Numbered from the stretch's first letter, positions 1,216 to 56,812 are shown. The stretch is DNA of 64,000 nucleotides from an uncultured Alphaproteobacteria bacterium (GCA_944391495.1 CALXTU010000004.1:5041-69040), one strand, 5' to 3'. A program made the numbers and translations. The notes: generated from the sequence alone by a model not told the origin.

Positions 1216-1246
1216 TTTGCAAATAAGGCATTTGCCGAACTAAAAA

Positions 1247-1273
1247 AGCGGGTTCTGTGCACCCGCTTTTTTA
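1247..1273 (+). terminator. Rho-independent terminator after rplS
   Basis: agcgggt-tctgtgc-acccgct hairpin followed by a T-tract. Confidence 0.6.
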
Positions 1274-1348
1274 GTACAATTTGAATCAACCAAAGGTTTG
1301 ATTTTAAGATTAAGACAAAATAAAGTTGTTGATAAACCGGAGCCGGTC

Positions 1349-1392: not shown

Positions 1393-1717
1393 AATTTTGT
1401 CCTCTTTTTAGAACAGAAAGGAATATCAAGGATGATAGGGGAAAAAACAACATTCCGGCAACAGCTGGAAAAATTACAAAGAGCGGGCGAGGAAAAGAGG
1501 CTTAAAGCATTGCAGGCCAAATATCCGAACCCGAATAATATTGATTACGGCAATATGAGCCTGCGCGACGAGTTGCAAACACGTTTTGATTTAGACGAGA
1601 TGAACAATCTCTCAACCAAGCTCGGCGCACCGAGCGGTTTGGCGGTCGGCAATGATAACGGCGCGCCGGTTCAAGACTTGAGCCAACGCCTGTCCGGCAA
1701 CGATACAGAGGCACAAA
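1393..1717. repeat. Repeat Z copy 1, covering the 5' leader and conserved toxin N-terminal domain
   Basis: Near-identical to 2628-2950. The first 33 codons are identical and the next ~60 codons are similar. Confidence 0.8.
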
Positions 1718-2214
1718 ACAGCTTTTATAAGCCTTTATCCAGACCAAATAAAGATAATGCCAATTGTTATATGACATTTGATGGACAAAGTTTAAATCTT
1801 GTAGGCGGCAATCCAACACATCAATACACATTAAATGCGATGTCCGGAAATCCTGATTATCAGGCCAGACAATATCAGTCAAAAAAGTATTTGGGTCCGA
1901 TACCGGAAGGAACATATTATGCCGCGCAAAATCAAAGACAAATAATTGATCCGATAAATGCCGCAGCAGGCATTATAAATGAAGGAAATTGGCGTAAATC
2001 TATCCCCGCATGGGGATTAAGACGAGTTTGGCTGCAGCCAGACATAAACACAAATACTTATGGTCGAAGTGGCTTTTCAATTCACGGAGGTTGGAAAAAA
2101 GGATCGGCAGGTTGCATAGATATTCCATGGCAAACCGGAAAGCTTAGTCGGTATTTAGATGATTGTCAGGATAACGTTCCGGTTTATGTAAAATATACCA
2201 AGGAGAAATGGTGA
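1432..2214 (+). CDS. Polymorphic toxin A: conserved N-terminal domain plus Tlde1/DUF2778-like C-terminal domain
   Basis: Residues 1-95 are shared with the ORF at 2665. The C-terminus carries GPIPEGTYY and GFSIHGGWKKGSAGCID, a His-x10-Cys arrangement like the LD-transpeptidase-fold effector Tlde1. AAGGA ribosome-binding site. Confidence 0.6.
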   Translation: MIGEKTTFRQQLEKLQRAGEEKRLKALQAKYPNPNNIDYGNMSLRDELQTRFDLDEMNNLSTKLGAPSGLAVGNDNGAPVQDLSQRLSGNDTEAQNSFYKPLSRPNKDNANCYMTFDGQSLNLVGGNPTHQYTLNAMSGNPDYQARQYQSKKYLGPIPEGTYYAAQNQRQIIDPINAAAGIINEGNWRKSIPAWGLRRVWLQPDINTNTYGRSGFSIHGGWKKGSAGCIDIPWQTGKLSRYLDDCQDNVPVYVKYTKEKW

Positions 2215-2564
2215 TGAACAAAGCCAAAGTGTATGAAAGGTTGCAGAAAATAAAAACATTTATCAAGCTTTTCAAGTGGTATATCTGTTTTTATATTTTA
2301 TACTTTTTGATATTAGTAAAAGAATATTTTTATCCGCCGGCCAAAGACGATCAAATTTGGGGTGCCCAAGAAACGATGAGCGATTGGAATTACCAGAATC
2401 AAGAGTTGTATCTTGAGTCAATAAAAATAGATATTGGAATTTCAATTTTAATTTTTTTGTTGGCGCTTAGCAATATGCAAAACTATCCGCGAATAGCCAA
2501 ACTGATTTTGCTATATCCATGGTTTATGGCACTATGGAATATAATTGAGTATGAATATATGTAA
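2214..2564 (+). CDS. Putative immunity protein A (N-terminal TM helix), translationally coupled to toxin A
   Basis: ATG 2214 overlaps the toxin stop (TGATG), 8 nt after AGGAG. It is a predicted membrane protein whose last ~29 codons lie inside repeat X. Confidence 0.5.
   Translation: MNKAKVYERLQKIKTFIKLFKWYICFYILYFLILVKEYFYPPAKDDQIWGAQETMSDWNYQNQELYLESIKIDIGISILIFLLALSNMQNYPRIAKLILLYPWFMALWNIIEYEYM
2472..2558. repeat. Repeat X copy 1
   Basis: 87 bp, ~95% identical to 4308-4396. Confidence 0.8.
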
Positions 2565-2574
2565 ATTAATAATC

Positions 2575-2633
2575 ATCCAGGCGGTAACATAAAATAAAAA
2601 CATATTTTGCAAAACAACCATAGATTTAATTTT
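2575..2633. repeat. Repeat Y copy 1
   Basis: 59 bp, similar to 3908-3966 (atccRRgcggtaacataaaat...agatttaatttt). Confidence 0.75.
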
Positions 2634-2950
2634 CCGTTTTTTAGAACAGAAAGGAATATCAAGGATGATAGGGGAAAAAACAACATTCCGGCAACAGCTG
2701 GAAAAATTACAAAGAGCGGGCGAGGAAAAGAGGCTTAAAGCATTGCAGGCCAAATATCCGAACCCTGATAATATTGACTACGGCAATATGAGCCTGCGCA
2801 ATGAATTGCAGACGCGCTTTGATCTGAACGAGATGAACAACCTATCCGCCAAACTCGGCACATCAAACGGTTTTACTGTTGGTAATGATAACAGCGCACC
2901 GGTTCAAGACTTGAGCCAACGCCTGTCCGGCAATGACAAAGGAACACAAA
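2628..2950. repeat. Repeat Z copy 2
   Basis: See copy 1. Confidence 0.8.
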
Positions 2951-3324
2951 ACGGTTTTTATGCTGCTCTCGGCAAACCGACGCCAAATTACATTCCGAAA
3001 AGCCATATCCTGGAAATAGCTGGTGCCGGCCTGCAAGGTTTCGGTAAAGGAATTGAAAGTGGAATGTTAACGGCGGTTAATGGTGCGACAAACGACTACT
3101 ATAATAAATTAAGTTCAAAATATTTAGGGGATTATTATAACAAGAATCAACGTCAAATTCAGCGGCAAGCGGAGGCGGCAGGCTTAGGTCAAGCCAACCA
3201 GATAGCTAATGATGTCATAGAATACGGTGCAAGTGCCTGGGCAGATACCAAAACCGCCGGTCTTTTATCAAGTAATTTATTTAATCAACCATGGGCGACA
3301 AATTGGTTGAAGAAGTTAAAATAA
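2665..3324 (+). CDS. Polymorphic toxin B: same N-terminal domain, Gly/Asn/Tyr-rich glycine-zipper-like C-terminus
   Basis: The N-terminal ~95 aa are near-identical to toxin A. The C-terminus (AGAGLQGFGKGIESG...) is unrelated to toxin A. Confidence 0.55.
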   Translation: MIGEKTTFRQQLEKLQRAGEEKRLKALQAKYPNPDNIDYGNMSLRNELQTRFDLNEMNNLSAKLGTSNGFTVGNDNSAPVQDLSQRLSGNDKGTQNGFYAALGKPTPNYIPKSHILEIAGAGLQGFGKGIESGMLTAVNGATNDYYNKLSSKYLGDYYNKNQRQIQRQAEAAGLGQANQIANDVIEYGASAWADTKTAGLLSSNLFNQPWATNWLKKLK

Positions 3325-3391: not shown

Positions 3392-3925
3392 ATGCCCTAT
3401 CCAGATAAACAAGCAATATTCAGCCGCATAAAAGAACTTTTGTTGCACTATGTTTTTTCATTCAAGGGTTTTGCAAACGGCTTGCAATTTGGTATAGCCA
3501 CTTCAATAGCATTTATATCTAATGATATTTTAAGCAAGTTGGATGTTTCTTTAACAATACGCAATTTTATTTATGGCTATATAATGCTGGTCGCATTTCA
3601 AAAAAGATGTCGGGATATCAACATCAAAGGGACATTAATAATAATTTTTATAACACTTGCTTTCTTTTATGTGGCAATATTTGAAGCACTTAAGCTTGAT
3701 ATGTATGGTTATTTGGATACAATATCAAAATTTTTCCTTCACGCATATGCATTTCTTGTTCTGACCATGATGATTTTACCATCATCACAAATCAAAAATG
3801 CCGAATTGACCAGCCCGTTGTTAAAATACCCGTATTTATACGTGTTAGTGTGTATTGGCATATGCCTTTGGGGTATATCCGTGGTATCAGAACATCAAGA
3901 TGAAATTATCCGAGCGGTAACATAA
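3392..3925 (+). CDS. Putative immunity protein B (polytopic membrane protein)
   Basis: 177 aa with 4-5 hydrophobic helices and an AAAGGA ribosome-binding site. It lies directly downstream of toxin B, and its 3' end runs into repeat Y. Confidence 0.45.
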   Translation: MPYPDKQAIFSRIKELLLHYVFSFKGFANGLQFGIATSIAFISNDILSKLDVSLTIRNFIYGYIMLVAFQKRCRDINIKGTLIIIFITLAFFYVAIFEALKLDMYGYLDTISKFFLHAYAFLVLTMMILPSSQIKNAELTSPLLKYPYLYVLVCIGICLWGISVVSEHQDEIIRAVT

Positions 3926-3966
3926 AATGAAAACATATTTTACGAGGCAACCAAAGATTTAATTTT
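3908..3966. repeat. Repeat Y copy 2
   Basis: See copy 1. Confidence 0.75.
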
Positions 3967-4018
3967 AATAAGTCTAATTCTCGAGACGCTTGTAATTCAT
4001 ATAGAGTTAATGGAATAA

Positions 4019-4294
4019 ATGATAAGTATTAACCCCCAAAAAATAACACAATATCTGCGGAAGGCAATTAAAATGGCAAGCCTTGTTATCGGACTGACCA
4101 TAATAGCCATAATCTGCTATATTATAGGTTATTTGCTAACAGATAAGGAGGGATGGTGTTTAAGTGAAGGACATGGTGTTTGGGATGCCGACAGACAAGA
4201 ATGCAGGCAAGATTGTCTGACTTGGCGTAAAGATATCGGTTGTGTTCCGATAACTGAAGAGAATATCAGAAAAAAAGAAAAAGGATTATTATAA
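4019..4294 (+). CDS. Small TM plus 4-Cys protein (possible orphan immunity protein)
   Basis: 91 aa with one TM helix and a Cys-rich tail. It sits between repeat Y copy 2 and repeat X copy 2. Confidence 0.3.
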   Translation: MISINPQKITQYLRKAIKMASLVIGLTIIAIICYIIGYLLTDKEGWCLSEGHGVWDADRQECRQDCLTWRKDIGCVPITEENIRKKEKGLL

Positions 4295-4307: not shown

Positions 4308-4396
4308 AATATGCAAAACTATCCGCGATTGGCCAAACTGATTTTGCTATATCCATGGTTTATGGCGCTATGGAATATAATTGAGTATGAATATTT
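4308..4396. repeat. Repeat X copy 2 (terminal copy next to hisS)
   Basis: See copy 1. Confidence 0.8.
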
Positions 4397-4432
4397 GCGA
4401 AAGCAGAATGTTAACGGCAGGAAAGGGGCAAA

Positions 4433-5743
4433 TCAGTTTAACAGAACCTCGGCCAGCGCGGCGGCATCAAGGCTTTTTTGCTCTCCGGATGCCATATCTT
4501 TGAGGCTGTAAAGCTTGGTCTTGGCTTCCTCTTCGCCGATGATAATCAGATACGGCACGCCGATTTTGTTGGCATATTCCATTTTCTTTTTGAACTTGCA
4601 TTGCCGATACATAACGTCAACCGGAATATTCTTTTGCCGCAGTTTGCCGGCCAGGCTGACGGCCTCATCGGTGAAAGCGGCGTCTTGCGTGATAATCAGC
4701 GCCTTGTCGGGCGTCAGAACCTTAATTGGCAGCAGATTATTGGCGCGCAACTGGTCAAACAACCGTGTCAGGCCGATAGATATGCCGACGCCGGGAAATT
4801 TCTTGTCCATAAACACCGAAGACAAATTATCATAGCGGCCGCCGGAACAAACCGAGCCGAACTGCGGATATTCGTCAAAAAAGGTCTCATAAACCGTGCC
4901 GGTATAATAGTCCAACCCGCGGGTGATACTCAGATCAATCTGCATATTAGTCGCCGGCAGTCCGAGGTTTTGCGCCTGCGAAACAACCGTCTTGAGCTCG
5001 TTCAGGCCTTCGGCAAACACACCGTCTTTAATGTCAAAACCTTCAAGTTTTGCTATAATTTGCTCGTTTGAACCGTTGATTTTGATAAAATCAAGCAATC
5101 TTTGCCGTTGCGCTTCTTCCAGTCCCAAATCATTGAGCTCGCCCAAAAAGGCCTCTTCGGGAATTTTTTTGATTTTATCAACCAGCCGCAAGACGTCGAC
5201 CGTTTTGTCGGCAATGCCGAGATATTCCAAAAAGCCGCTCAAAAGCTTACGGTTGTTGATATAGATTTTAAAAGCCGGCAGCTCCAGCTTGCTGAATACC
5301 GTATAAATCACCGCCAGAACTTCCGCGTCATAAATAATATTCAGCTCGTCGCGGTCGATAATGTCGATATCGCATTGATAAAATTCGCGGAACCGGCCTT
5401 TTTGCGGGCGTTCGCCGCGGTATACCTTGCCGATTTGATAACGTTTGAACGGAAAGGTCAGTTCATTGTTATAGAGCGCGACATATTTGGCCAGCGGCAC
5501 CGTCAGGTCAAAACGCATGGCAATATCGGTGTCACCTTTTTTAAACTCGTAAATTTGTTTTTCCGTCTCGCCGCCGGATTTTGAGAGCAAAACTTCCGCC
5601 AGCTCCAACACCGGCGTATCAAGCGGCGCAAATCCGAATAATTCGTAAGTATGGGCAATGACGGCTTTCATGTGATTAAAAACAAGTTGCTCCTGCGGCA
5701 AAAGTTCCATAAACCCCTGTAACGTACGTGCGGTCATTGTCAT
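4433..5743 (-). CDS. hisS: Histidine--tRNA ligase
   Basis: Class II aaRS motifs are present. The start is taken at the internal Met (MTMTARTLQGF) after GGAGA; the longer ORF upstream has no similarity. Confidence 0.9.
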   Translation of the reverse strand: MTMTARTLQGFMELLPQEQLVFNHMKAVIAHTYELFGFAPLDTPVLELAEVLLSKSGGETEKQIYEFKKGDTDIAMRFDLTVPLAKYVALYNNELTFPFKRYQIGKVYRGERPQKGRFREFYQCDIDIIDRDELNIIYDAEVLAVIYTVFSKLELPAFKIYINNRKLLSGFLEYLGIADKTVDVLRLVDKIKKIPEEAFLGELNDLGLEEAQRQRLLDFIKINGSNEQIIAKLEGFDIKDGVFAEGLNELKTVVSQAQNLGLPATNMQIDLSITRGLDYYTGTVYETFFDEYPQFGSVCSGGRYDNLSSVFMDKKFPGVGISIGLTRLFDQLRANNLLPIKVLTPDKALIITQDAAFTDEAVSLAGKLRQKNIPVDVMYRQCKFKKKMEYANKIGVPYLIIIGEEEAKTKLYSLKDMASGEQKSLDAAALAEVLLN

Positions 5744-5879
5744 ATCTCCGTTAAAATTAAATTCAGACAAACTTAAAATTACAGCCATTTTAACACTTCT
5801 GTCAAGCAGCTTATGCCGAAACTTTAAGTTTTTAAAACAAAAAACTCCCCGGCCTTTCACAAGACGGGGAGAAAAATTT

Positions 5880-7169
5880 TTATTTTTTTCCGTGATATTT
5901 CATTTGCGGCGCCAGATAGGCACAGGGACCGAACAGCAGAGCAGTGTATTGCTTCTGGTTCAGATTGTTTCTGCCGCCCCAGAGAAGTATGGCTTGTTTG
6001 TTTCCGCTGCGCATGAGCTTGATGATATGTGCATCATCATAAAAGCCCTCCGCGGCAAATATCTCGGCCCAGGCAGGGTTTTCCAGCGACATATCCTGAA
6101 CTTTGCCGCCGATTTTTTTGCCGTTGATTTTAATACATTTCAGCAACCCTGCGACATCATTTCTCGGTCCTTGTTCTGCCAGAGGTTTGAACCACTTAGC
6201 CTGAGCATTCTCTTCCATAATGTCAAAGAGTCGTTGTTGCAGTTCCGGTGCCGCCAAATCATACAAGGTTAAAGGCAGTTTGTCTTCTTTGGCCAGATTA
6301 AGCAGCGTTTCCGGCCGGCAAAGCTTGTCCGAGAGTCTGACGGAAATCTCCTTCGGCAAAGCGGTCAGAAGTTGATCTGCTGCTGCTCGATGCCGGTCGT
6401 TGATTAATCGTTCAATCAACCGTTCGACAAGGTCGTATTGCCGGAGCCTCAGCCAGTAATTGGCCATTTTATTGGCAACGGCCAAAGAGTCGGCATCGTC
6501 AGCCCAGACGTTAAAGTCAGGAAGCTGCACCAGCTGTTCTGCCGGTATGTTCGGCCGGTAAGTCTTGTTTTTGAAAAGCAGGGACATTGCCGCTGCAGCT
6601 GTTTTCTGCAGATCGCCGGTAGCAAATAAGGCGTCTTGCCTTAATATTTTGTCCAGACCTTGCAGGATATCAACGCTGTAACCGACAACCAGCCGGCCGA
6701 ACAGCATCGTTCTGGCTTCTCCGCTCAGTCTTGCGACGGTTTTGTCATAGAAGCTTCCCGATTGTTTCTTAAGCAGTACGGGAACCCACTTTTTGTCGCT
6801 GTTGCAGACATGGACAATCTCGTCGTTTGACAGCGTGTAGCCTTTACTGGCAACGGCTCTGTCTTGTGCCGTCTCATTGTTAAAAGCAGCATAAAATTCC
6901 TCGCTGTTGCGGATTTCGTCAACAAACAGCTCCCAGAGTTTCTCGTCTTTCAGGCATTTTAGCCTGGTTGCCGGCCGCCAGAGGTGTTCAGCCATCCGGC
7001 GGAAGCGGTAATTTGGTGTCTTGCTGAGGATTTTCATCTCTCTTTTGTGGGAGAGAAGAAAATACGAGGCATAAAAGTTGCCTTTTTTTGTGTGACGTAA
7101 GGCCCATGCCGGAAATAATTTAACAACCGGAGCGACGGCTGAAACAGCCATTGTTTTAATTGAATACAT
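5880..7169 (-). CDS. Hypothetical protein (429 aa)
   Basis: Long ORF with native-looking codon usage. No recognisable domain. Confidence 0.45.
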   Translation of the reverse strand: MYSIKTMAVSAVAPVVKLFPAWALRHTKKGNFYASYFLLSHKREMKILSKTPNYRFRRMAEHLWRPATRLKCLKDEKLWELFVDEIRNSEEFYAAFNNETAQDRAVASKGYTLSNDEIVHVCNSDKKWVPVLLKKQSGSFYDKTVARLSGEARTMLFGRLVVGYSVDILQGLDKILRQDALFATGDLQKTAAAAMSLLFKNKTYRPNIPAEQLVQLPDFNVWADDADSLAVANKMANYWLRLRQYDLVERLIERLINDRHRAAADQLLTALPKEISVRLSDKLCRPETLLNLAKEDKLPLTLYDLAAPELQQRLFDIMEENAQAKWFKPLAEQGPRNDVAGLLKCIKINGKKIGGKVQDMSLENPAWAEIFAAEGFYDDAHIIKLMRSGNKQAILLWGGRNNLNQKQYTALLFGPCAYLAPQMKYHGKK

Positions 7170-7467
7170 AAAATAAAAAATTTAAGTTTTTAACAATCTT
7201 GTACGCGTTTCGCACAAGAGCCTCAAAACAACCGTAACCCTCGCTCGGCAAATACCCGGACGCTTTCCGCAAAATGCAAAAAACAGCCAAATATCCGGTC
7301 AAACTAATAGTCACAATAATCTTGAAACGATAGCAATATACCATTTTTGTCTAAATATGTCAACATATAAGCAGCGGATTTTTTGCAAAAACATCTTGGT
7401 CTGATTAAAAAAAGTGTTATAACTGGTACGGGTAGGTTTTTAAGTAAATAAGTAAAGAAGATGCAAA

Positions 7468-8472
7468 ATGCTCAAATACGCGCTTATCGGTTATCAAAAT
7501 ACTTTGGCTCATAATATTCTCGATTTGCTGGCAGCAAGGGGAGTTGCCGCGGCGGACGTCGGCGTCTTTGCCGCGAAGTTTACCGGCCGGCCCAAAGTTT
7601 CGTTCGGTGATAATGAGCTTGAGGTGCAGTCTTTACATGACTTGAAACCCGAAGAATTTGCCGCGGTTATTTTTACTGCCGACGAAAATGCCGCCGCGCA
7701 ATATGCGCCGAAATTTGCCGCTGCCGGTGCCAAAGTCATTAATGCAACGATGGCTTTGGAAGGGGAGGCGGAAATCCCGATGATTGTCGGCGGGGTTAAC
7801 GACGCGTCGCTTGCCGCCGCCCGCAAAGGCATTATCAATGTGCCGCAGCCGCCGGTGGTGCAGCTTTTGGGTGCTTTGGCCGGTCTGACGACCAAATACC
7901 GGATTAAAAGCATCCGCCTGACGGCTTTTATGGCTGCCGATACGGAAGGTCAGGACGGTATGAGCGAGCTTTATAACGCCACCCGTCGTATTTTGATGAA
8001 TGATACGGCCTCGTCAACCGGCGGGCTGTTTCATAAAACACTGGCCTTTAACATTATTCCGCAGGCCGGTTCTTTTATCGGCGAAGAAACACTGGCCGAA
8101 TGGCTCTACAATTCGCACGGCAAACAAGTTTTGGGCGACGGTGTCAAAATTCACGCCAACTGCGCCGTTGTTCCGGTGTTTGTCGGCACGGGCCAATATG
8201 TTAACGTCGAAACGTTTGATGAAATCGACGCCGACCTGGCGCGTGAGGATATCAAAAAAGCCAAAGGCGTCTTGGTGGTAGACCGCCAGGAAGACGGCGG
8301 CTGTGCGTCGTTGACGGATGTTCAGGGCGAGAGCAGCATTTTTGTCAGCCGCATCCGTCAGGACATGACGGTCGAAAACGGCATCAGCCTGTGGGTTGCC
8401 GGCGATGCCGGCCGGATTGCCGCACAAAATATTCTGGCATTGTTAAAACAATTTCTGAAAAAGGATAAATAA
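7468..8472 (+). CDS. Aspartate-semialdehyde dehydrogenase-fold protein lacking the catalytic residues (pseudoenzyme)
   Basis: Aligns along its length with short-form Asd, but GATGAVG is GYQNTLA, NPNCST is NVPQPPV, STYQAVSGAG is TAFMAADTEG and the GHS histidine is GTG. The Asd C-terminal dimerisation motif (LWVAGD...) is retained. Confidence 0.6.
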   Translation: MLKYALIGYQNTLAHNILDLLAARGVAAADVGVFAAKFTGRPKVSFGDNELEVQSLHDLKPEEFAAVIFTADENAAAQYAPKFAAAGAKVINATMALEGEAEIPMIVGGVNDASLAAARKGIINVPQPPVVQLLGALAGLTTKYRIKSIRLTAFMAADTEGQDGMSELYNATRRILMNDTASSTGGLFHKTLAFNIIPQAGSFIGEETLAEWLYNSHGKQVLGDGVKIHANCAVVPVFVGTGQYVNVETFDEIDADLAREDIKKAKGVLVVDRQEDGGCASLTDVQGESSIFVSRIRQDMTVENGISLWVAGDAGRIAAQNILALLKQFLKKDK

Positions 8473-10901
8473 TGAAAAAATGGCTTGCGTTTTTGTTATG
8501 TTTTCTGCTGGCATCACCGTTATGTCTGGCGGCATCGTCCCGGCTTGATGACCTGGGCAACGATTTAAGTTACAGCAGGATATCGTCCCGCCTCGGGAAA
8601 ATAGAAAAGCTGACGCAGGCCGAAAAGCCGGATATTGACGCCATGGTCGACGAGTTGTCGTATCTGAACGAAACCGCCGCCGCACTTGATACCAGCCGCC
8701 GGAGCACCTCCGAAGCCATCGCCCGTACGGAAAAGCGGATTGAGGCTTTGGGCGAAGTCAACGATGATTTGCCCGAGGCAAGGGTTATTTCGCAAAAACG
8801 CCGGGAATATAACCAAGAGCTTGCTGATGAAAAAGCCCGCCTGTCCGAGATAGAAATATTGACGGCCAAAATAGATGAAATAAGTTTGAAAATTTTTGAT
8901 ATCCGCAACCAGGAGCTTTGGGGTAATCTGCTCAATTCCGAAGGCGCGTTGATTAATCCGGGTGTGTTCTGGCGGGCCGGCAGCGAGTTGGTCGCGTTCG
9001 GAATGGATATCGTCAAGTCGCCGTTTGTCCGTTATGCCGAACTGACGGCAGACCAGAAAGTATCTCTGCGCAACAATATTATCCTGATGGTTGTGGTCAT
9101 CACCTTTATCAGTCTGCTCGGTCTTTGGCTGCGGCGTTTTGTCATTCGCCGTTGGGGATATCGCGTTGATATCGAGGCGCCGCGTCTGGGGCGTAAAATC
9201 ATAGCCGCTTTTGCCGTCTGGTGTGCCTACGGCATCATTCCGACGGCCATCATCGGGTTCTGCCTTTACTGGATTTTAACCGCCGGTATTTTAAGCAGCG
9301 GCTTTTTCGGCGTGGTTTTGTCAAGCGCATTGTATTATCTGCTCTATATCATCATCGGCCGGGCCACCTGTCGGGTTGTCTTTACGCCGTATAATGAAAA
9401 ATGGCGTCTGATTAATATGCCGACTGACAAAGCCCGCAGGTTAACCAGAGTTATTTACCTGACCATCGCTCTGGTCGGTATCATGGCATTCCTGCAGCAT
9501 ATTGTCGCGGTCGGCAAATATTCGCTGGAGCTTTTGTCTTGCCTGCTGGCCATATCCTCCGTGATTAAGGCATTTTGCGTGGTATGGATTGCGCATATTT
9601 ACTTTGCGCCGCTTTCGACCGAGCTTGAGGAAGATGACGACAACGGCACTGAAGATACCGAGGAAGACGAGAAAGAAGGCAGGGCTTTCCGTATCGGAAT
9701 GTTAATCAGCCTTTTTGCACTGGGTATTATCGGGCTGTCGATGTTCGGCTATCCGCGTCTGGCATCGTTTATTATCAACAATTCGATTTTGTCGGCGATT
9801 GTTATAGCGGTGTTCAGCATTTTGCGCCGGTTGATATACGATGTCGTTCAGCATGTTTTGCTGATGGGGCTTTGGGTCAAAACTTTCCGGATGCGCCGGC
9901 GCTTTTTGCGCAAGCTTGATTTTTGGTTTGGTATTATCGCCGAACCCGTATTGATATTGCTGCTGCTCGGTGCTTTGTTGCTGTTGTGGGGTGTACCGTT
10001 TGACGTGCTTAAAGGGGCGGTTTATAAAGCCGTTTCTGGTTTTATGGTCGGCGGAATTGAAATCTCGCTGATATCCATTTTCTGGGGCGTTGTGATTTTT
10101 GTCCTCTGCTTATGGATTATCAGATTCGTACGCTACCGCATTGAGTTCCGGCTCCTGGAAAAAACCAATATCGACGCCGGCACCAAACATTCGCTGGCCT
10201 CAGGCTTTGCCTATATTGCCTATGTCCTGGCGGGTATCCTGTCCATCGCCGTTATGGGCGGCAACTTAACCAACATTGCCCTGATTGCCGGTGCGTTGTC
10301 GGTTGGTGTCGGCTTGGGCTTGCAGGATATCGTCAACAACTTCATGTCGGGTATCGTTATGCTGTTTGAGCGCCCGATTAAAGTCGGCGACTGGGTTGTC
10401 ATCAACGGCGAGGAAGGCAAGGTAAAGCAGATTAACATTCGCTCGACCGAGGTTGAAACCTTTAACCGCCACAGCGTCATTATTCCGAACTCGACGGTTC
10501 TGTCCAATTCGGTGACCAACCTGACGCACGAAAACAACTGGGTTCGCTATTCGGTCAAAGTCGGCGTTGCTTACGGTACCGATGTCGAAAAGGTTAAAAA
10601 CATTTTGTTGGAATGTGCCGCTTCACACCCCAAAGTATCCAAAAAGCAGGCTCCCTATGTTTTGTTCCAGGATTTCGGCGAGAGCAGTCTTGATTTTGAG
10701 CTGCGCTTTTACGTCACCGATATCTGGAACGGCTGGACGGCGCCGAGTGATGTCCGCTATACAATCAACCGCCGGTTTATTGAAGAAGGCATAGAAATAC
10801 CGTTCCGCCAGATGGTTATCCACCACGGTAGTTCGGTTGCCGTTGAAACCGACAGTCAGTTCTATGCCAGAAAAGGAGCTAAGAAAAAAAATGCTGATTA
10901 A
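8472..10901 (+). CDS. MscS-family mechanosensitive channel (MscK/KefA-like) with signal peptide
   Basis: The C-terminal MscS core is present (GLGLQDIVNNFMSGIVMLFERPIKVGDWV). It has a large N-terminal periplasmic/coiled-coil domain, and the start overlaps the previous stop. Confidence 0.8.
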   Translation: MKKWLAFLLCFLLASPLCLAASSRLDDLGNDLSYSRISSRLGKIEKLTQAEKPDIDAMVDELSYLNETAAALDTSRRSTSEAIARTEKRIEALGEVNDDLPEARVISQKRREYNQELADEKARLSEIEILTAKIDEISLKIFDIRNQELWGNLLNSEGALINPGVFWRAGSELVAFGMDIVKSPFVRYAELTADQKVSLRNNIILMVVVITFISLLGLWLRRFVIRRWGYRVDIEAPRLGRKIIAAFAVWCAYGIIPTAIIGFCLYWILTAGILSSGFFGVVLSSALYYLLYIIIGRATCRVVFTPYNEKWRLINMPTDKARRLTRVIYLTIALVGIMAFLQHIVAVGKYSLELLSCLLAISSVIKAFCVVWIAHIYFAPLSTELEEDDDNGTEDTEEDEKEGRAFRIGMLISLFALGIIGLSMFGYPRLASFIINNSILSAIVIAVFSILRRLIYDVVQHVLLMGLWVKTFRMRRRFLRKLDFWFGIIAEPVLILLLLGALLLLWGVPFDVLKGAVYKAVSGFMVGGIEISLISIFWGVVIFVLCLWIIRFVRYRIEFRLLEKTNIDAGTKHSLASGFAYIAYVLAGILSIAVMGGNLTNIALIAGALSVGVGLGLQDIVNNFMSGIVMLFERPIKVGDWVVINGEEGKVKQINIRSTEVETFNRHSVIIPNSTVLSNSVTNLTHENNWVRYSVKVGVAYGTDVEKVKNILLECAASHPKVSKKQAPYVLFQDFGESSLDFELRFYVTDIWNGWTAPSDVRYTINRRFIEEGIEIPFRQMVIHHGSSVAVETDSQFYARKGAKKKNAD

Positions 10902-12392: not shown

Positions 12393-13019
12393 GTGAAAAA
12401 GAGGGAAATAATGGTTTTAGAAAATAAGTTAAATATCACCAATCAATTAGAGTTGAATAAAATAGAAGAAAAGCTTAGTAAAGAAAAAGCTAAAAAACTT
12501 TTTGACAGTGGTAAAATAAATACTCTTAGAGTCGGTACTTTTGCCGGATTGAAGCAGATTCACAAATTTTTATTTGAAGATATTTATGATTTTGCCGGAA
12601 AAATACGGACTGTTAATCTTTCTAAAGGAAATTTTAGATTTGCGCCGGTTATGTACTTAGAGCAAGCCTTAAAACATATAGATAAAATGCCCCAATCAAC
12701 CTTTGATGAAATTGTTGAAAAATATGTTGAAATGAATATAGCTCATCCTTTTAGAGAAGGAAATGGTCGCGCTACCCGAATTTGGCTGGATTTAATCTTC
12801 AAAAAAGAACTAAAAATGGTGGTTGATTGGAATAAAATTGATAAATCCGACTATCTGTCCGCTATGGAAAGAAGCCCAATTAAAGATATTGAAATAAAAC
12901 ATCTCTTAAAAAATGCCCTTACTGATAGAATTAATGAAAGAGAAGTATTCATGAAAGGAATTGATGTTAGTTATTATTACGAAGGCTATGATGAATACGA
13001 CATCCATAAGCTGATGTAA
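12393..13019 (+). CDS. fic: Fic/Doc family protein (AMPylator-type)
   Basis: Canonical HPFREGNGR Fic motif. Size and layout resemble E. coli Fic. An alternative start exists at 12411. Confidence 0.85.
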
Positions 13020-13025
13020 GATTAA

Positions 13026-13059
13026 GCAATTATCGGACTAATTTTTATGATAATTTTAA
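13026..13059. repeat. Direct repeat flanking fic (right)
   Basis: See left copy. Confidence 0.7.
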
Positions 13060-13412
13060 GCTTTTGAGTAAGAAAATTGAAAATTGTATGCGATGATTGG
13101 CTTACCTTGAGGATATATATTTCTTTTTATCTCTTTTGAATTTTTATAAATTATTTCTTGTAACAAAGTTCCATCAGGCCTGTAACCTCGACTAATGCCA
13201 TCCATTTTGCCGTTTTTATACTGAGCCTCCAAAAGAACTTTTCCATTCGGATAATAGACATACACAATACCATTTATAGGTTCTTTATTAACATTATAGC
13301 GTATTCCATCTATTAGTTTTGTATTTTCCATAGTATACCTATCTTGAGCTAAACAATTACAGCTCAAGATAGATATAAAAAAAATGATTTTCAAAATATT
13401 ATTCATCTTCAA
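13056..13412 (-). CDS. YwqK-family (MORN-variant repeat) secreted protein, immunity-like
   Basis: Signal peptide followed by repeated YxNGK...G..Y units (YYPNGKVLLEAQYKNGKMDG...). Confidence 0.55.
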   Translation of the reverse strand: MKMNNILKIIFFISILSCNCLAQDRYTMENTKLIDGIRYNVNKEPINGIVYVYYPNGKVLLEAQYKNGKMDGISRGYRPDGTLLQEIIYKNSKEIKRNIYPQGKPIIAYNFQFSYSKA

Positions 13413-14337
13413 CTAAATGTTTACATTTTTTCCATTCTTTATGAATATTATCATAAAAATACCAGTTTTCTTTAACATTTTCTGCATATCCTAAAATGTC
13501 AGTACTGGCAGCATTGATACTAGGATAGCTTTTGCCGTTTTTGGGGCAAATGATTTTATCTCCTTCTTTTTTTAATTCGTAGATATTTCCTTTTTGATTA
13601 CCCCTTTTCATACTTCTTTTAATAATGGTCCCTTCGGGAATTTTTTTAGTATCAATTTGACCTTTATATGTTCTGAATATCGGAGAAACAAACTCGGAAA
13701 TAACATCTTTATTATCAGTTTTAAGCTCAGGAGTATTTTCAAATTTTTTAGCATCAAAATTGAAATCTATAGGTGTTTGTAACAAATTCTCATATTTTTC
13801 GGAGAATGTGACACCATCTTGAATATAGTGTATTAAATCAATTAAATTATTAAGATCTGTTCTATATGGAAGTATTAAAGAGTCTTCATATCCATTTGAT
13901 TCTCGAGTTTCTAATTCTGTAGATATAAAATCCCTACATACATTTAATATATTATAAACTTTTTGAATCTCTTTGATTGTTCTTGCAAGTTTTGGATTTG
14001 TTGTTGTTGCTAATAATTCATATTCTCCATTTTCTAAAGCAGAATAAATTTCATAAGTATCTTGTTTTTTTACAATAATATTAGATTGAGGAATGTTATT
14101 ATATGTTTGTATTAAATCAAGCATCAATTGGCAAGCTAATGCTTGTTTTCCTAATTTTGATATATCGGTTCTTCCTGATAGCCAATTATTTGCGGTAGAT
14201 TCGGAAACATCTAATAAATTAGAAATTTCTTCAGCATCACTATGTTTGTTTAAGTCAAAATTATCAACATCAATAGCTTTATTTTTTGCTATTTCTTTTA
14301 AAAATTTTTCAGCTTCATAATATGTAAAGTTTTTCAT
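13399..14337 (-). CDS. HTH (XRE-like) domain protein with unknown C-terminal domain
   Basis: A helix-turn-helix at about residues 30-65. The 3' end overlaps the ywqK-like gene. Confidence 0.45.
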   Translation of the reverse strand: MKNFTYYEAEKFLKEIAKNKAIDVDNFDLNKHSDAEEISNLLDVSESTANNWLSGRTDISKLGKQALACQLMLDLIQTYNNIPQSNIIVKKQDTYEIYSALENGEYELLATTTNPKLARTIKEIQKVYNILNVCRDFISTELETRESNGYEDSLILPYRTDLNNLIDLIHYIQDGVTFSEKYENLLQTPIDFNFDAKKFENTPELKTDNKDVISEFVSPIFRTYKGQIDTKKIPEGTIIKRSMKRGNQKGNIYELKKEGDKIICPKNGKSYPSINAASTDILGYAENVKENWYFYDNIHKEWKKCKHLVEDE

Positions 14338-54515: not shown

Positions 54516-56138
54516 ATGGATCATAAACAATTTCTTCTGGATGAATACAAAAGAGAACGTCAAGAACCGGCATATTTCTCTTTGCCGGACGGGGAGAGTG
54601 TGCTTATGCCCTGCGTCTACCACGGCGATAAAGACGCATTTGTTGATGACTGGCTGTCTTTTCAGAATGAAGAACTGCAGAAATATGATACTCACAATGC
54701 CGCCAACCCGGACAATCCCATAGAAATTCCCGAGCCGTTGAAATATGACGACCTTTATATTTTCCCGCCGTTAAAAGGAGTCCTTAAAAACTGGTCGGAG
54801 CAAAAGATTATCAACAAAGCACTGCGCACGGCCATGCGTAAATACAAAGCGGCAATAAAACAGACGGCGCAAGTTGCCAAAATATATCCGAAAGATGATT
54901 TTATTACCAGTCTGAACAAGGATGCCGTTTCCAGATTAAAAAAACTGCATAACGACTATAAAAAAGAAAAATTAAAACAAAACCTGGCCAGGACTTTCAA
55001 ATTCACGGCTAAACAAACGGCCAATATTCTGGCCGGTGCAACCGGAGCTCTGCCGGCCGCCGCATATTATCTGTTGGATAAAAAAGTGCGCTTTGCCAAA
55101 AGCAAAACCAAGAGTTTTATTGATAATACAGCTTTGCCGTATATTCGCAGAGGTGTTGCAAAGTTCCTGGTCTTGGTATGTCTTACGGGAGCAGTCAACT
55201 TAACGTCTGTCATCAAAGAAAAGCATCAGGACAAAATTGAGCAGCAAATGCTTCAAGCCCGTGAGCAAGCTGAAAAAGAAGCCTTTTTTGCCAAATATCA
55301 AACCACTAACGAGGCCTTTTATAAAAATTATAAACAGGCCAAAAACTTAGAGCAGGAATTTATCTGTCTGTTGTCCTGTTATGAAGATTATCATGAACAG
55401 GCTTATAAATGCCAGGCCGGCAAATGGACCGTCGGCTACGGATCACGGCAGTTGGCTGATGGTACGCCTGTTGTTAAAGGAACCACCGTCACCCGGAAAG
55501 ACGCCGCGGCGGCCGTTACCAAGCATATGGAAAAATACGTCTATCCTCAGCTTTGTCATATTAATAAAGAACTTTCGCCGGAACAGCTGATGGCTGTCAA
55601 TATGTTTATCTACAACACGGACGAAAACGCTTTCCGAAATTCAAAAGTCTGCCGTGCCATTAACGACAATGCCGATGAAACCAAAATGCGGGAGGCCTTT
55701 TCTTACTATCGCAGCGTTAACGGCAAGCGCAGTTACGGTCTGATCAACCGTCGCGGTTTTGAAGGCTATTTATGGAGCTGCGGCAATCTGGCCGATGTTT
55801 TGCTGATGAGCCCCAATCTGGCCGGCAGTCAGGATATCCGCTATTTCGAATATCCAGATACCGATAGTCGCAATCCGCATGAAAATCCGGACGAAACTTT
55901 TGTCGTGCGGCAAAAAGATGAAGTAAAACGGGATTTGAAAAAATTTAAAGTTTCCAATCTTTCGCAGAGCATCTTAGGCAATACCACACCGGAAATTTGT
56001 GATAATTTGTGTGATAAATACGGAATTTATGAAGAAAACAATCAAATCAAACAACTGCAGGTTATCACGGTCGATAATTCTCAAACCGGCAAGGCCATTA
56101 CTTTTGCTCAGGCTCAAAGGTTAAAGGAAAGTCGTTAA
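54516..56138 (+). CDS. Multidomain protein with an internal T4-lysozyme-like (GH24) domain
   Basis: E-x8-C-x5-T spacing (YEDYHEQAYKCQAGKWTVGYGS) and a downstream GH24-like helix (SPEQLMAVNMFIYN). No signal peptide. The N-terminal ~290 aa have no recognisable similarity. Confidence 0.5.
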   Translation: MDHKQFLLDEYKRERQEPAYFSLPDGESVLMPCVYHGDKDAFVDDWLSFQNEELQKYDTHNAANPDNPIEIPEPLKYDDLYIFPPLKGVLKNWSEQKIINKALRTAMRKYKAAIKQTAQVAKIYPKDDFITSLNKDAVSRLKKLHNDYKKEKLKQNLARTFKFTAKQTANILAGATGALPAAAYYLLDKKVRFAKSKTKSFIDNTALPYIRRGVAKFLVLVCLTGAVNLTSVIKEKHQDKIEQQMLQAREQAEKEAFFAKYQTTNEAFYKNYKQAKNLEQEFICLLSCYEDYHEQAYKCQAGKWTVGYGSRQLADGTPVVKGTTVTRKDAAAAVTKHMEKYVYPQLCHINKELSPEQLMAVNMFIYNTDENAFRNSKVCRAINDNADETKMREAFSYYRSVNGKRSYGLINRRGFEGYLWSCGNLADVLLMSPNLAGSQDIRYFEYPDTDSRNPHENPDETFVVRQKDEVKRDLKKFKVSNLSQSILGNTTPEICDNLCDKYGIYEENNQIKQLQVITVDNSQTGKAITFAQAQRLKESR

Positions 56139-56812
56139 CTCCTGTTATCGGCAGGTTGCTTTTTCCGCCGCCAGTGATTGTACAGATAAATCAGCAGCAA
56201 AACAACATACAAACCGCCCATTCCCCACCAGGTCCAGTATTTAATCTGCTTGTCGCTCCATTCTCTGGAAATGCTGTTAACGTTAAGCGCGCTGCCCTGA
56301 ACTTTAAACTCGGCATTGGGATTCTCGTGCAGAATTGAGGCACCGATTTGGTAATCGGAGTTTAAAAAATCAAATTCAATGACCAGACCGTCGTCAACAG
56401 GCTTCAGGTTAGAGGTGATATCGGGCGTTGTTATCGTCTTATCCAAGGTAAAATGCACCATTTTGGCGTCTTTCGGCACCACGATACGTATCGGATTGTG
56501 GCCGATTTTTGACACGTCTTGTCCCGATAATGCCGAAGCGCCTTTATTCTGCAGCGTCACGCGTGTCAGATATAAGTCTTTGTACTCTTTGCCTTTGACA
56601 TTAACTTTGTAATCATTGTCGTTTTGCGATGAGATAAAAGAAATCGTTTCCGTTTCATATTTCAAAATCGGACGGTTAATGTAAAACTGGTACCAGCCGA
56701 TGACAATGGCCGAAACGGCCAGCAGAAAGGCACCGGTCTTGCTGGTCCAAAAATTCCAGATTGCCGTTATGATCTTTTTTATATCGGTATTATTGCGTTT
56801 AAACAGCTTCAT
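56135..56812 (-). CDS. Bitopic membrane protein convergent with the lysozyme-domain gene
   Basis: N- and C-terminal TM helices. The 3' ends overlap by 4 nt. Confidence 0.4.
   Translation of the reverse strand: MKLFKRNNTDIKKIITAIWNFWTSKTGAFLLAVSAIVIGWYQFYINRPILKYETETISFISSQNDNDYKVNVKGKEYKDLYLTRVTLQNKGASALSGQDVSKIGHNPIRIVVPKDAKMVHFTLDKTITTPDITSNLKPVDDGLVIEFDFLNSDYQIGASILHENPNAEFKVQGSALNVNSISREWSDKQIKYWTWWGMGGLYVVLLLIYLYNHWRRKKQPADNRS

Follow-up and report, generated by a model that had tools for sequence, protein, structure and literature searches.

A putative constant N-terminal module of lineage-specific polymorphic toxins in uncultured gut Alphaproteobacteria

Polymorphic toxins are classified according to the module at their N-terminus, and in the past each newly described one has pointed to a route of delivery or to an adaptor. 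In this study, we have analyzed such a segment in a 64,000-nucleotide (nt) stretch of DNA from an uncultured Alphaproteobacteria bacterium (GCA_944391495.1, CALXTU010000004.1:5041-69040; the whole stretch is called the window), where two open reading frames (ORFs) on the + strand, ORF1 (1432-2214, 260 amino acids (aa)) and ORF2 (2665-3324, 219 aa), begin in the same way. The first-pass annotation had drawn attention to this common start, and BLASTP bears it out: the two proteins align at 60% identity over 180 aa (E 7e-62), near-identical over aa 1-100 and unrelated afterwards. Across the relatives that we collected, the segment is the constant N-terminal region in front of variable C-terminal toxin domains, a small transmembrane (TM) ORF specific to the toxin type lies directly 3' of the toxin gene and would confer immunity, and orphan cassettes and scars are present (in the window 3973-4032, 4019-4294, 4308-4397 and a repeated spacer). 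Variable modules, specific immunity ORFs, scars and AT-rich cassettes together correspond to a polymorphic toxin system as defined by Zhang et al. (2012, PMC3482391), and the segment is the constant N-terminal module of a lineage-specific system of this kind. It is a new N-terminal domain within a well-known kind of system, unnamed and confined to uncultured Alphaproteobacteria of the human and animal gut.

The markers MIX, FIX and RIX of type VI secretion systems (T6SS) resemble this arrangement in that a signal-less conserved N-terminal domain precedes interchangeable antibacterial toxins, with an immunity gene 3', and in that the effector genes often lie at a distance from the secretion cluster. 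Like the present domain, RIX is short and lineage-restricted. Many genuine T6SS effectors are orphans, so that a missing linkage to vgrG, hcp or paar does not exclude a T6SS. Unlike in these systems, however, no PAAR, MIX, FIX, VgrG/Hcp extension or Rhs match is among the Pfam matches listed (those at E <= 1 for the two window toxins, and a 25-family summary of 36 families for 42 members); within the same scope, the judgement by eye that the segment is not WXG/LXG-, MIX-, PAAR- or RHS-like stands. Around the approximately 57 related loci that we fetched, in at least five distinct chromosomal contexts (several of the contigs are only 1-5 kb long), there is also no vgrG, hcp, paar or adaptor gene (DUF4123, DUF1795, DUF2169) within ±10 kb, and over this distance the co-occurrence with T6SS genes that had been proposed as a check was not found.

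In their toxin domains, the prokaryotic SAA/Lipocone polymorphic toxins (Burroughs, Nicastro & Aravind, 2025, PMC12419801) come close, since SAA tips occur in 13 of the 42 members and are accompanied by a TM plus four-cysteine immunity protein. The portion of that paper on which we draw gives as N-terminal contexts the type IV, VI, VII and IX secretion systems (T4SS, T6SS, T7SS, T9SS), MuF, Sec/lipobox, cystatin-like and other domains, and does not mention a hairpin; set against that portion, the module appears undescribed. The tags of the T7SS (WXG100, PE, LXG) share with it an N-terminal antiparallel two-helix hairpin, a short motif by the turn and the association with Sec-less polymorphic toxins. 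In contrast to these tags, there is no WXG/LXG and no in-register YxxxD/E motif (the fourth position after Y39 is Ser), the loop reads P-D-Y-x-N-M-S, and no Pfam match links the two. To our knowledge, a T7SS is not known in Gram-negative alphaproteobacteria, and the resemblance would be architectural only.

A conserved hairpin and a disordered linker

The DNA that encodes the segment is a repeat of 300 nt (1397-1696 versus 2630-2929, 90% identity), in which positions -27 to +101 (counted from the ATG) match perfectly and weaker similarity extends to -35, and the homology ends at about codon 100. Position-by-position comparison places the toxin 1 leader at 1397..1431 (+ strand; repeat family D1) and its copy, the toxin 2 leader, at 2630..2664 (+). 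Over 27 nt (1405-1431 and 2638-2664) the two leaders are identical, and the ribosome-binding site GAAAGGAA (1416-1423) falls within this stretch. The earlier claim that the leader was duplicated together with the coding DNA is therefore correct, but the length is 27 nt of perfect identity (35 nt if the partial similarity is counted) and not 40 nt. By hydropathy and sequence, neither ORF1 nor ORF2 has a signal peptide, a twin-arginine (RR) motif, a lipobox or a hydrophobic segment (the Kyte-Doolittle mean over 19 residues peaks at 0.21 in ORF1 and 0.53 in ORF2), which agrees with the proposed lack of Sec, Tat and lipoprotein signals. No alternative in-frame start precedes either toxin in the sequence, and this rules out a mis-called start that conceals a signal peptide.

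AlphaFold2 (AF2) models were made from a 39-sequence alignment for full-length ORF1, too shallow for its C-terminal, Tlde1-type half, and from a 31-sequence alignment for the N-domain alone. In toxin 1, aa 1-65 (1432..1626, +) are predicted to form a helical hairpin (helix 3-30, loop 31-43, helix 44-64) at a predicted local distance difference test (pLDDT) score of 88-96; the same stretch is marked by the invariant alignment columns and by the hidden Markov model (HMM) search. It is followed by a low-complexity linker of about 35 aa, rich in Gly, Asn and Ser (aa 66-100; 1627..1731, +), which is predicted to be disordered (pLDDT <50 from residue 67 to about 106) and ends in the junction motif QNSFY. 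A second copy of hairpin and linker makes up aa 1-100 of toxin 2 (2665..2964, +; BLASTP and DNA comparison), where the junction reads QNGFY; the family form is QNSF(Y/W), and it occurs with several C-terminal module types. What had been described as a helical, charged domain of 95 aa is real in its helical part, but is better divided into the 65-aa hairpin and the linker of about 35 aa.

The 14-residue core N41-L54 (NMSLRDELQTRFDL) is invariant or nearly so throughout the family, and so are L27, K30, Y31, Y39 and L60. As the codons of the core differ synonymously at almost every position (29 distinct DNA versions), selection acts on the protein rather than on a DNA or RNA element, and conservation at the DNA or RNA level was rejected for this reason. 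When the two copies in the window are compared, synonymous and non-synonymous differences number 10 and 4 in the hairpin core, and 5 and 10 in the linker. In the most distant members (P0047, P0054, P0057-P0059), helix 1 is a second copy of the motif (PDYSKMSLREELEARF ... PDYSKMSLREELEARF), and hhalign relates the two halves of the hairpin with 96.6% probability (76% without these tandem-motif members). The antiparallel 65-aa hairpin is thus probably an internal duplication of a unit of about 30 aa (DYxxMSLRxELxxRF ... LxxLxxKY). Seven invariant polar residues are spread over all faces of helix 2, which would argue for a bound partner rather than for mere packing of the hairpin; together with the tandem motif of the distant members, the invariant core points to a possible partner-binding tag.

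The domain is rare. A word-indexed search of 5.8 billion proteins returned 20 relatives, and an exhaustive HMM search of 1.84 billion cluster representatives returned 45. Genome and metagenome scans place the family in metagenome-assembled genomes (MAGs) labelled as uncultured Alphaproteobacteria or Azospirillaceae and in human-gut assemblies. We found it only in uncultured gut Alphaproteobacteria, often in multiple copies (one MAG has 6 loci). The scan of viral contigs found none that encodes the domain, and there is accordingly no sign of a phage-borne or packaged (MuF-like) toxin. The domain is N-terminal in 44 of the 45 representatives, the exception being a deletion fusion that recurs in a single human-gut lineage: in at least 11 contigs (L043-L053, for example L043 9611-10774) a deletion has removed a helix-turn-helix (HTH) gene and helix 1, and has fused the N-terminal part of an alpha/beta-hydrolase lipoprotein to the toxin at ...KTPDYANMSLRDEL.

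Nothing above threshold was obtained with the N-domain in Pfam, NCBIfam, PHROGs or PADLOC, and NCBIfam holds nothing for the two full window toxins. A Foldseek search of the AF2 hairpin against PDB and BFVD gave no match at E <= 0.001, only generic hairpins, and a sequence profile search of PDB gave chance matches only (E >= 0.13). By Pfam, NCBIfam, PHROG, PADLOC, and PDB sequence and fold, the N-domain is not assignable to a known secretion route. Nor was a known cytoplasmic family recovered, the finding that the first-pass annotation had named as one that would speak against delivery. The only recurrent match is to EAD7 (PF19960), over helix 2 and part of the linker (about 40 positions), in 15 of the 42 members; with a best E of 0.004 and 13-18 bits against a gathering score of 32 (13.3 and 15.5 for the window toxins), these matches are below threshold, and they are not independent of one another.

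Interchangeable toxin modules and their genomic contexts

At least 10 unrelated, interchangeable types of C-terminal module follow the hairpin. Tlde1/YkuD-like modules are present in ORF1, L006, L010 and P0047 (best Tlde1 E 1.7e-10; the YkuD matches are weak), the SAA module (PF00277) reaches a best E of 5.9e-20, and among the 42 members Pfam also recognizes DUF6973 and, weakly, Phage_lysozyme in P0040. In toxin 1, aa 101-260 (1732..2214, +) are a predicted peptidoglycan-acting domain of the Tlde1-type L,D-transpeptidase fold, assigned by PF10908 and by sequence: the E value is 3.3e-8, the score of 34.4 bits exceeds the cut-off of 30.1, and the His-x9-Cys pair is intact (SIHGG...GSAGC), with a His-to-Cys spacing of 10 residues, equal to that between C131 of Tlde1a and the residue that we take to be its histidine, H121. 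C131 is named in the work on Tlde1a, and Tlde1 cargo is so far known from the T6SS (PMC9638812). The C-terminal module of toxin 2 (aa 101-219; 2965..3324, +) has no Pfam match and finds homologues only within the same toxin family; it is presumed to be membrane-active, with a glycine-zipper-like motif (GFGKGIESG). That ORF2 is a toxin at all is suggested by this motif, by the shared N-terminal module and by the multi-TM ORF downstream. Searches with the ORF2-type and STWDNT-type C-terminal modules returned only members of the same family and no fusions to known trafficking domains. The remaining modules seem to be lineage-specific.

Across loci, every toxin type has a distinct family of small TM ORFs 3' of it; these are most simply explained as immunity proteins. 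Tlde1 proteins, lysozymes and Lipocone toxins all have their site of action in the envelope. Every identifiable cargo of the hairpin would likewise act there, on peptidoglycan, the membrane and probably lipid-linked precursors. According to PMC12419801, prokaryotic SAA domains belong to the Lipocone superfamily and serve as toxin tips. Their predicted activity is the cleavage, outside the cytoplasm, of lipid-linked envelope precursors, and they pair with an immunity protein made of a TM segment and a four-cysteine domain. The 91-aa ORF at 4019-4294 in the window fits the four-cysteine immunity class as described there.

Two types of locus recur. The window has the first, type (a), in which toxin genes lie between trmD-rplS and hisS; it is present in at least 9 MAGs with differing cassette content. 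A distant tandem-motif member, P0059, also lies directly 3' of rplS (L055, 192-1608), which suggests that the rplS-proximal site is an old and conserved hot spot for toxins. In the second, type (b), a gene for a 239-aa XRE-type HTH protein is found about 60 nt upstream of the toxin, and 1-4 immunity genes follow; at least four unrelated chromosomal neighbourhoods contain the unit, and a distant member has it as well. The HTH gene stands upstream of 'group 2' toxins (MDFETYKRK...) in L021 (9211-9930), L057 (9221-9940), L059 (9220-9938), L033 (9194-9913) and L041 (9-206), and is absent from the rplS-hisS locus of the window. Its product looks like a dedicated regulator. L021 further encodes, at 5281-7705 on the - strand, a second and unrelated signal-less protein of 424 aa with a GH108 lysozyme domain (aa 217-306), preceded by an HTH paralogue and followed by a 167-aa protein with a signal peptide; these genes may form a further toxin-immunity module with a regulator of the same kind.

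Possible delivery and its alternatives

The lack of a Sec signal, the envelope-acting cargo and the membrane immunity proteins together suggest that the toxins leave the cytoplasm in a Sec-independent manner. Hairpin and linker are the only element common to all of them, and the polar surface of the hairpin is invariant, which implies a conserved binding partner. We therefore consider it somewhat likelier to be true than false that the hairpin is the tag by which an unlinked export machine or adaptor recognizes the toxins. On helix 2, the invariant and mostly polar surface (S43, R45, D46, E47, Q49, T50, R51, D53) would be the docking tag for a conserved partner encoded elsewhere in the genome, which could be a component of a secretion machine, an adaptor or a chaperone and would carry the signal-less toxin out of the producer cytoplasm. 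The disordered linker would be a flexible tether, and recombination at the QNSF(Y/W) junction would exchange the toxin cassettes. The cargo would then act on the envelope or periplasm of a neighbouring cell, with small inner-membrane immunity proteins shielding kin. This agrees with the suggestion that the segment is a trafficking or adaptor-recognition domain in so far as it is the constant N-module of polymorphic toxins; the tie to a T6SS or to another machine, and a partner, were not found. The delivery reading is the best inference available.

As to the route that such a tag might serve, a T6SS-type cargo or adaptor function is possible and offers the most common precedent, because Tlde1 has so far been a T6SS effector. 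A T4SS, a T1SS-like exporter (T1SS, type I secretion system) or an undescribed route would each be a doubtful candidate, and the flagellar type III secretion system (T3SS) only about half as credible as any of these. We give a small chance, on a par with that of a T4SS, to the more specific idea that DYxxMSLRxELxxRF is the signal of an undescribed contact-dependent route (neither T6SS nor T4SS nor T1SS), or a T7-like hairpin signal in a Gram-negative bacterium; if true, this would be an undescribed or T7-like route dedicated to placing envelope-active toxins in the periplasm of neighbours. Should the partner prove to belong to a known machine, the module would be a useful new marker domain, and otherwise it would point to a new way in which gut bacteria antagonize one another. 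The unusually clean invariant motif of 14 residues would lend itself well to pull-downs, reporter fusions and genome mining. The module also unites Tlde1, prokaryotic SAA/Lipocone and uncharacterised toxin and immunity families, and so provides a catalogue of new envelope-targeting toxins.

Several observations weigh against a delivery tag. Within ±10 kb of the related loci there is no secretion-system gene at all: T6SS, T4SS and T1SS (peptidase-containing ABC transporter, PCAT) genes and flagellar or phage-tail clusters are all missing there. The same holds for the annotated parts of the window, which take in all but the stretches at roughly 28-30 kb and 32-34 kb, so that the secretion route is, as had been said from the start, not visible in it. 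We found no interaction partner, and among the 45 representatives the domain is on no protein other than these toxins. The fold is that of a generic hairpin with no informative structural neighbour by Foldseek, and the human-gut copy that has lost helix 1 implies either that helix 1 is dispensable or that this copy is dead. Separately from these points, a literature search on the gut lineage RF32 together with secretion or flagella found nothing.

Among the other explanations, bacteriocin-like uptake survives best, although we regard it as unlikely. Here the toxins would be released non-specifically (by lysis, leakage or vesicles), and hairpin and linker would be a receptor-binding and translocation region that acts in the target cell. 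In colicins and S-type pyocins the receptor domains are helical hairpins and the translocation regions are disordered. The window toxins resemble them in being small and signal-less, with a constant N-terminal part, variable killing domains and adjacent immunity genes, and in placing a helical hairpin and a disordered, Gly/Asn/Ser/Gln-rich segment of low complexity before the killing domain. The lack of secretion genes near the loci counts here as a point in favor, as does the nature of the identifiable cargo (Tlde1, lysozyme-like, SAA/Lipocone), which would need passage of the outer membrane only, and, like many bacteriocin loci, the group-2 module is accompanied by an XRE-type regulator of its own. 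However, the N-terminal part, of about 100 aa, is far shorter than known receptor-plus-translocation regions, and the order is reversed as compared to colicins, with the disordered part between hairpin and cargo. By eye there is no obvious TonB- or Tol-box peptide at the N-terminus (such boxes are short and variable), where residues 3-30 are predicted to be helical, and no lysis gene was seen. Finally, the motif is invariant although members are only 25-50% identical elsewhere, which fits a self-encoded partner better than a target receptor caught in an arms race.

A further reading, to which we give slightly less weight again, is that the hairpin is a coiled-coil module for oligomerisation, or for auto-inhibition or stability, rather than a trafficking signal: it could pair toxins, hold the cargo inactive or anchor the toxins at the envelope, and the export signal would lie elsewhere, for example in basic C-terminal tails. 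The fold, a generic antiparallel coiled-coil hairpin with two related halves, is what this reading would predict. Modules that are otherwise unrelated do end in basic and often aromatic tails (KEKW, KKLK, NKIK, QWRK; 2185-2214 and 3295-3324 in the window, and in relatives), and the mean net charge of the last 10 aa is +1.9 in the family versus +0.8 in other window proteins (p = 0.005), but this test rests on non-independent sequences from AT-rich genomes with Lys-rich proteins. Basic C-terminal tails resemble the signals of VirB/D4-type T4SS, and those seen here may be a second signal, for instance of T4SS type, which we regard as a weak lead. Against oligomerisation, the seven invariant polar residues on all faces of helix 2 exceed what a self-pairing coiled coil would need, and the module is found strictly at the N-terminus, with a disordered tether behind it.

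It is improbable that the segment is a long leader peptide (double-glycine, Nif11 or NHLP type) which a peptidase-containing ABC transporter would cleave off during export, in a T1SS-like manner. Such a leader would account for a conserved helical segment of about 65 aa before hypervariable 'core' regions, in many paralogues per genome and with no Sec signal, and a nearly conserved K-(Y/F/L)-G does close the hairpin. Yet this is a single Gly, followed by V, A, T, K or Q and itself missing in several members, and the leader was rejected because no conserved GG, GA or GS site exists. In addition, no ABC transporter with a C39 peptidase was seen in the inspected neighbourhoods, where ABC exporters are represented only by MsbA-like ones at a distance of about 8 kb, and the cargoes are folded enzymes of 100-200 aa, not peptides. 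More improbable still is a divergent EAD7-like Effector-Associated Domain (EAD), an intracellular adaptor to an NTPase-centred anti-phage system through homotypic binding: EADs are likewise small, all-alpha N-terminal effector tags, but their defining trait is that a core protein of the NTPase system, usually an adjacent one, carries a second copy (PMC7159879), and we rejected membership because the scores are below the gathering threshold, no second copy is found on a VMAP, vWA-MoxR or GTPase core protein in the neighbourhoods or among the 45 representatives (all small toxins), PADLOC gives no match, and dedicated membrane immunity genes and envelope activities do not match suicide effectors.

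Layout of the window island and its neighbours

The toxin genes of the window lie in an AT-rich island of 3.2 kb between rplS (802-1215) and the convergent hisS (4433-5860), and all island genes are on the + strand. Its GC content is 37.9%, versus 46.8% for the window. Within it, the DNA of the N-domain is genome-like (48.7%), and the cassettes and immunity genes are AT-rich (31-42%). An intrinsic terminator hairpin 3' of rplS (1239..1275, +; RNA fold of -21.4 kcal/mol, z = -5.9, followed by a U-run) sets the island apart from the ribosomal-protein operon.

Putative immunity protein 1 (2208..2564, +; 118 aa, two TM segments predicted by hydropathy) overlaps the stop codon of toxin 1. Its family follows the Tlde1-type toxin in L001, L006 and L010 and is found elsewhere within the island in L004. 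Putative immunity protein 2 (3392..3925, +; 177 aa, multi-TM by hydropathy) lies 3' of toxin 2, and its family is present in 9 toxin islands, directly 3' of the same toxin type in L004 and L005. In L001, a close strain, the same position holds a degenerate Tlde1 toxin (10001-10486): the called gene, of 161 aa, starts within helix 1, and about 100 residues of the Tlde1 part are gone.

Downstream of toxin 2, the island carries remnants of an earlier cassette. The 63-nt spacer before the toxin 2 leader (2571-2633) recurs as an 86% copy at 3904..3966 (+; repeat family D3), and this copy probably marks the former start of a third toxin gene. Shortly after it, 3973..4032 (+) retains the last 19 codons and the stop of an SAA/Lipocone-type toxin (SNSRDACNSYRVNGINDKY*), as recognized by comparison with the intact toxins of L003 and L013, and its overlap with the start of immunity gene 3, 14 nt, is exactly that of the intact locus L003. 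Immunity gene 3 (4019..4294, +; 91 aa) encodes one TM helix and a four-cysteine domain, a type that follows SAA-type toxins in L003, L013 and L023. The toxin remnant and the spacer copy upstream of it indicate that the third toxin was deleted and that immunity gene 3 was left as an orphan. At the hisS-proximal edge of the island, 4308..4397 (+) repeats the 3' end of immunity gene 1 as a 96% copy (repeat family D2); this copy and the one at 3904-3966 would be recombination scars at island edges.

Other genes of the window may be noted. A 429-aa protein (5880-7169, - strand), without a Pfam or NCBIfam match, adjoins hisS in all type (a) loci. Farther on, there are a Fic-domain protein (12393-13019), a MORN_2 protein with a signal peptide (13056-13412, -; YwqK-like, immunity-type) and a 312-aa protein with a possible HTH and no family match (13399-14337, -). 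The only gene of flagellar or T3SS type seen in the window is a lone 82-aa ORF with a FliN/SpoA domain (FliMN_C; about 23723-23971, -), which adjoins a DUF374-waaA-lpxK operon. At 54516-56138, a 540-aa protein combines central hydrophobic segments with a Phage_lysozyme domain (aa 289-414, E 1.9e-19), and its convergent neighbour (56135-56812) is a membrane protein of 225 aa.

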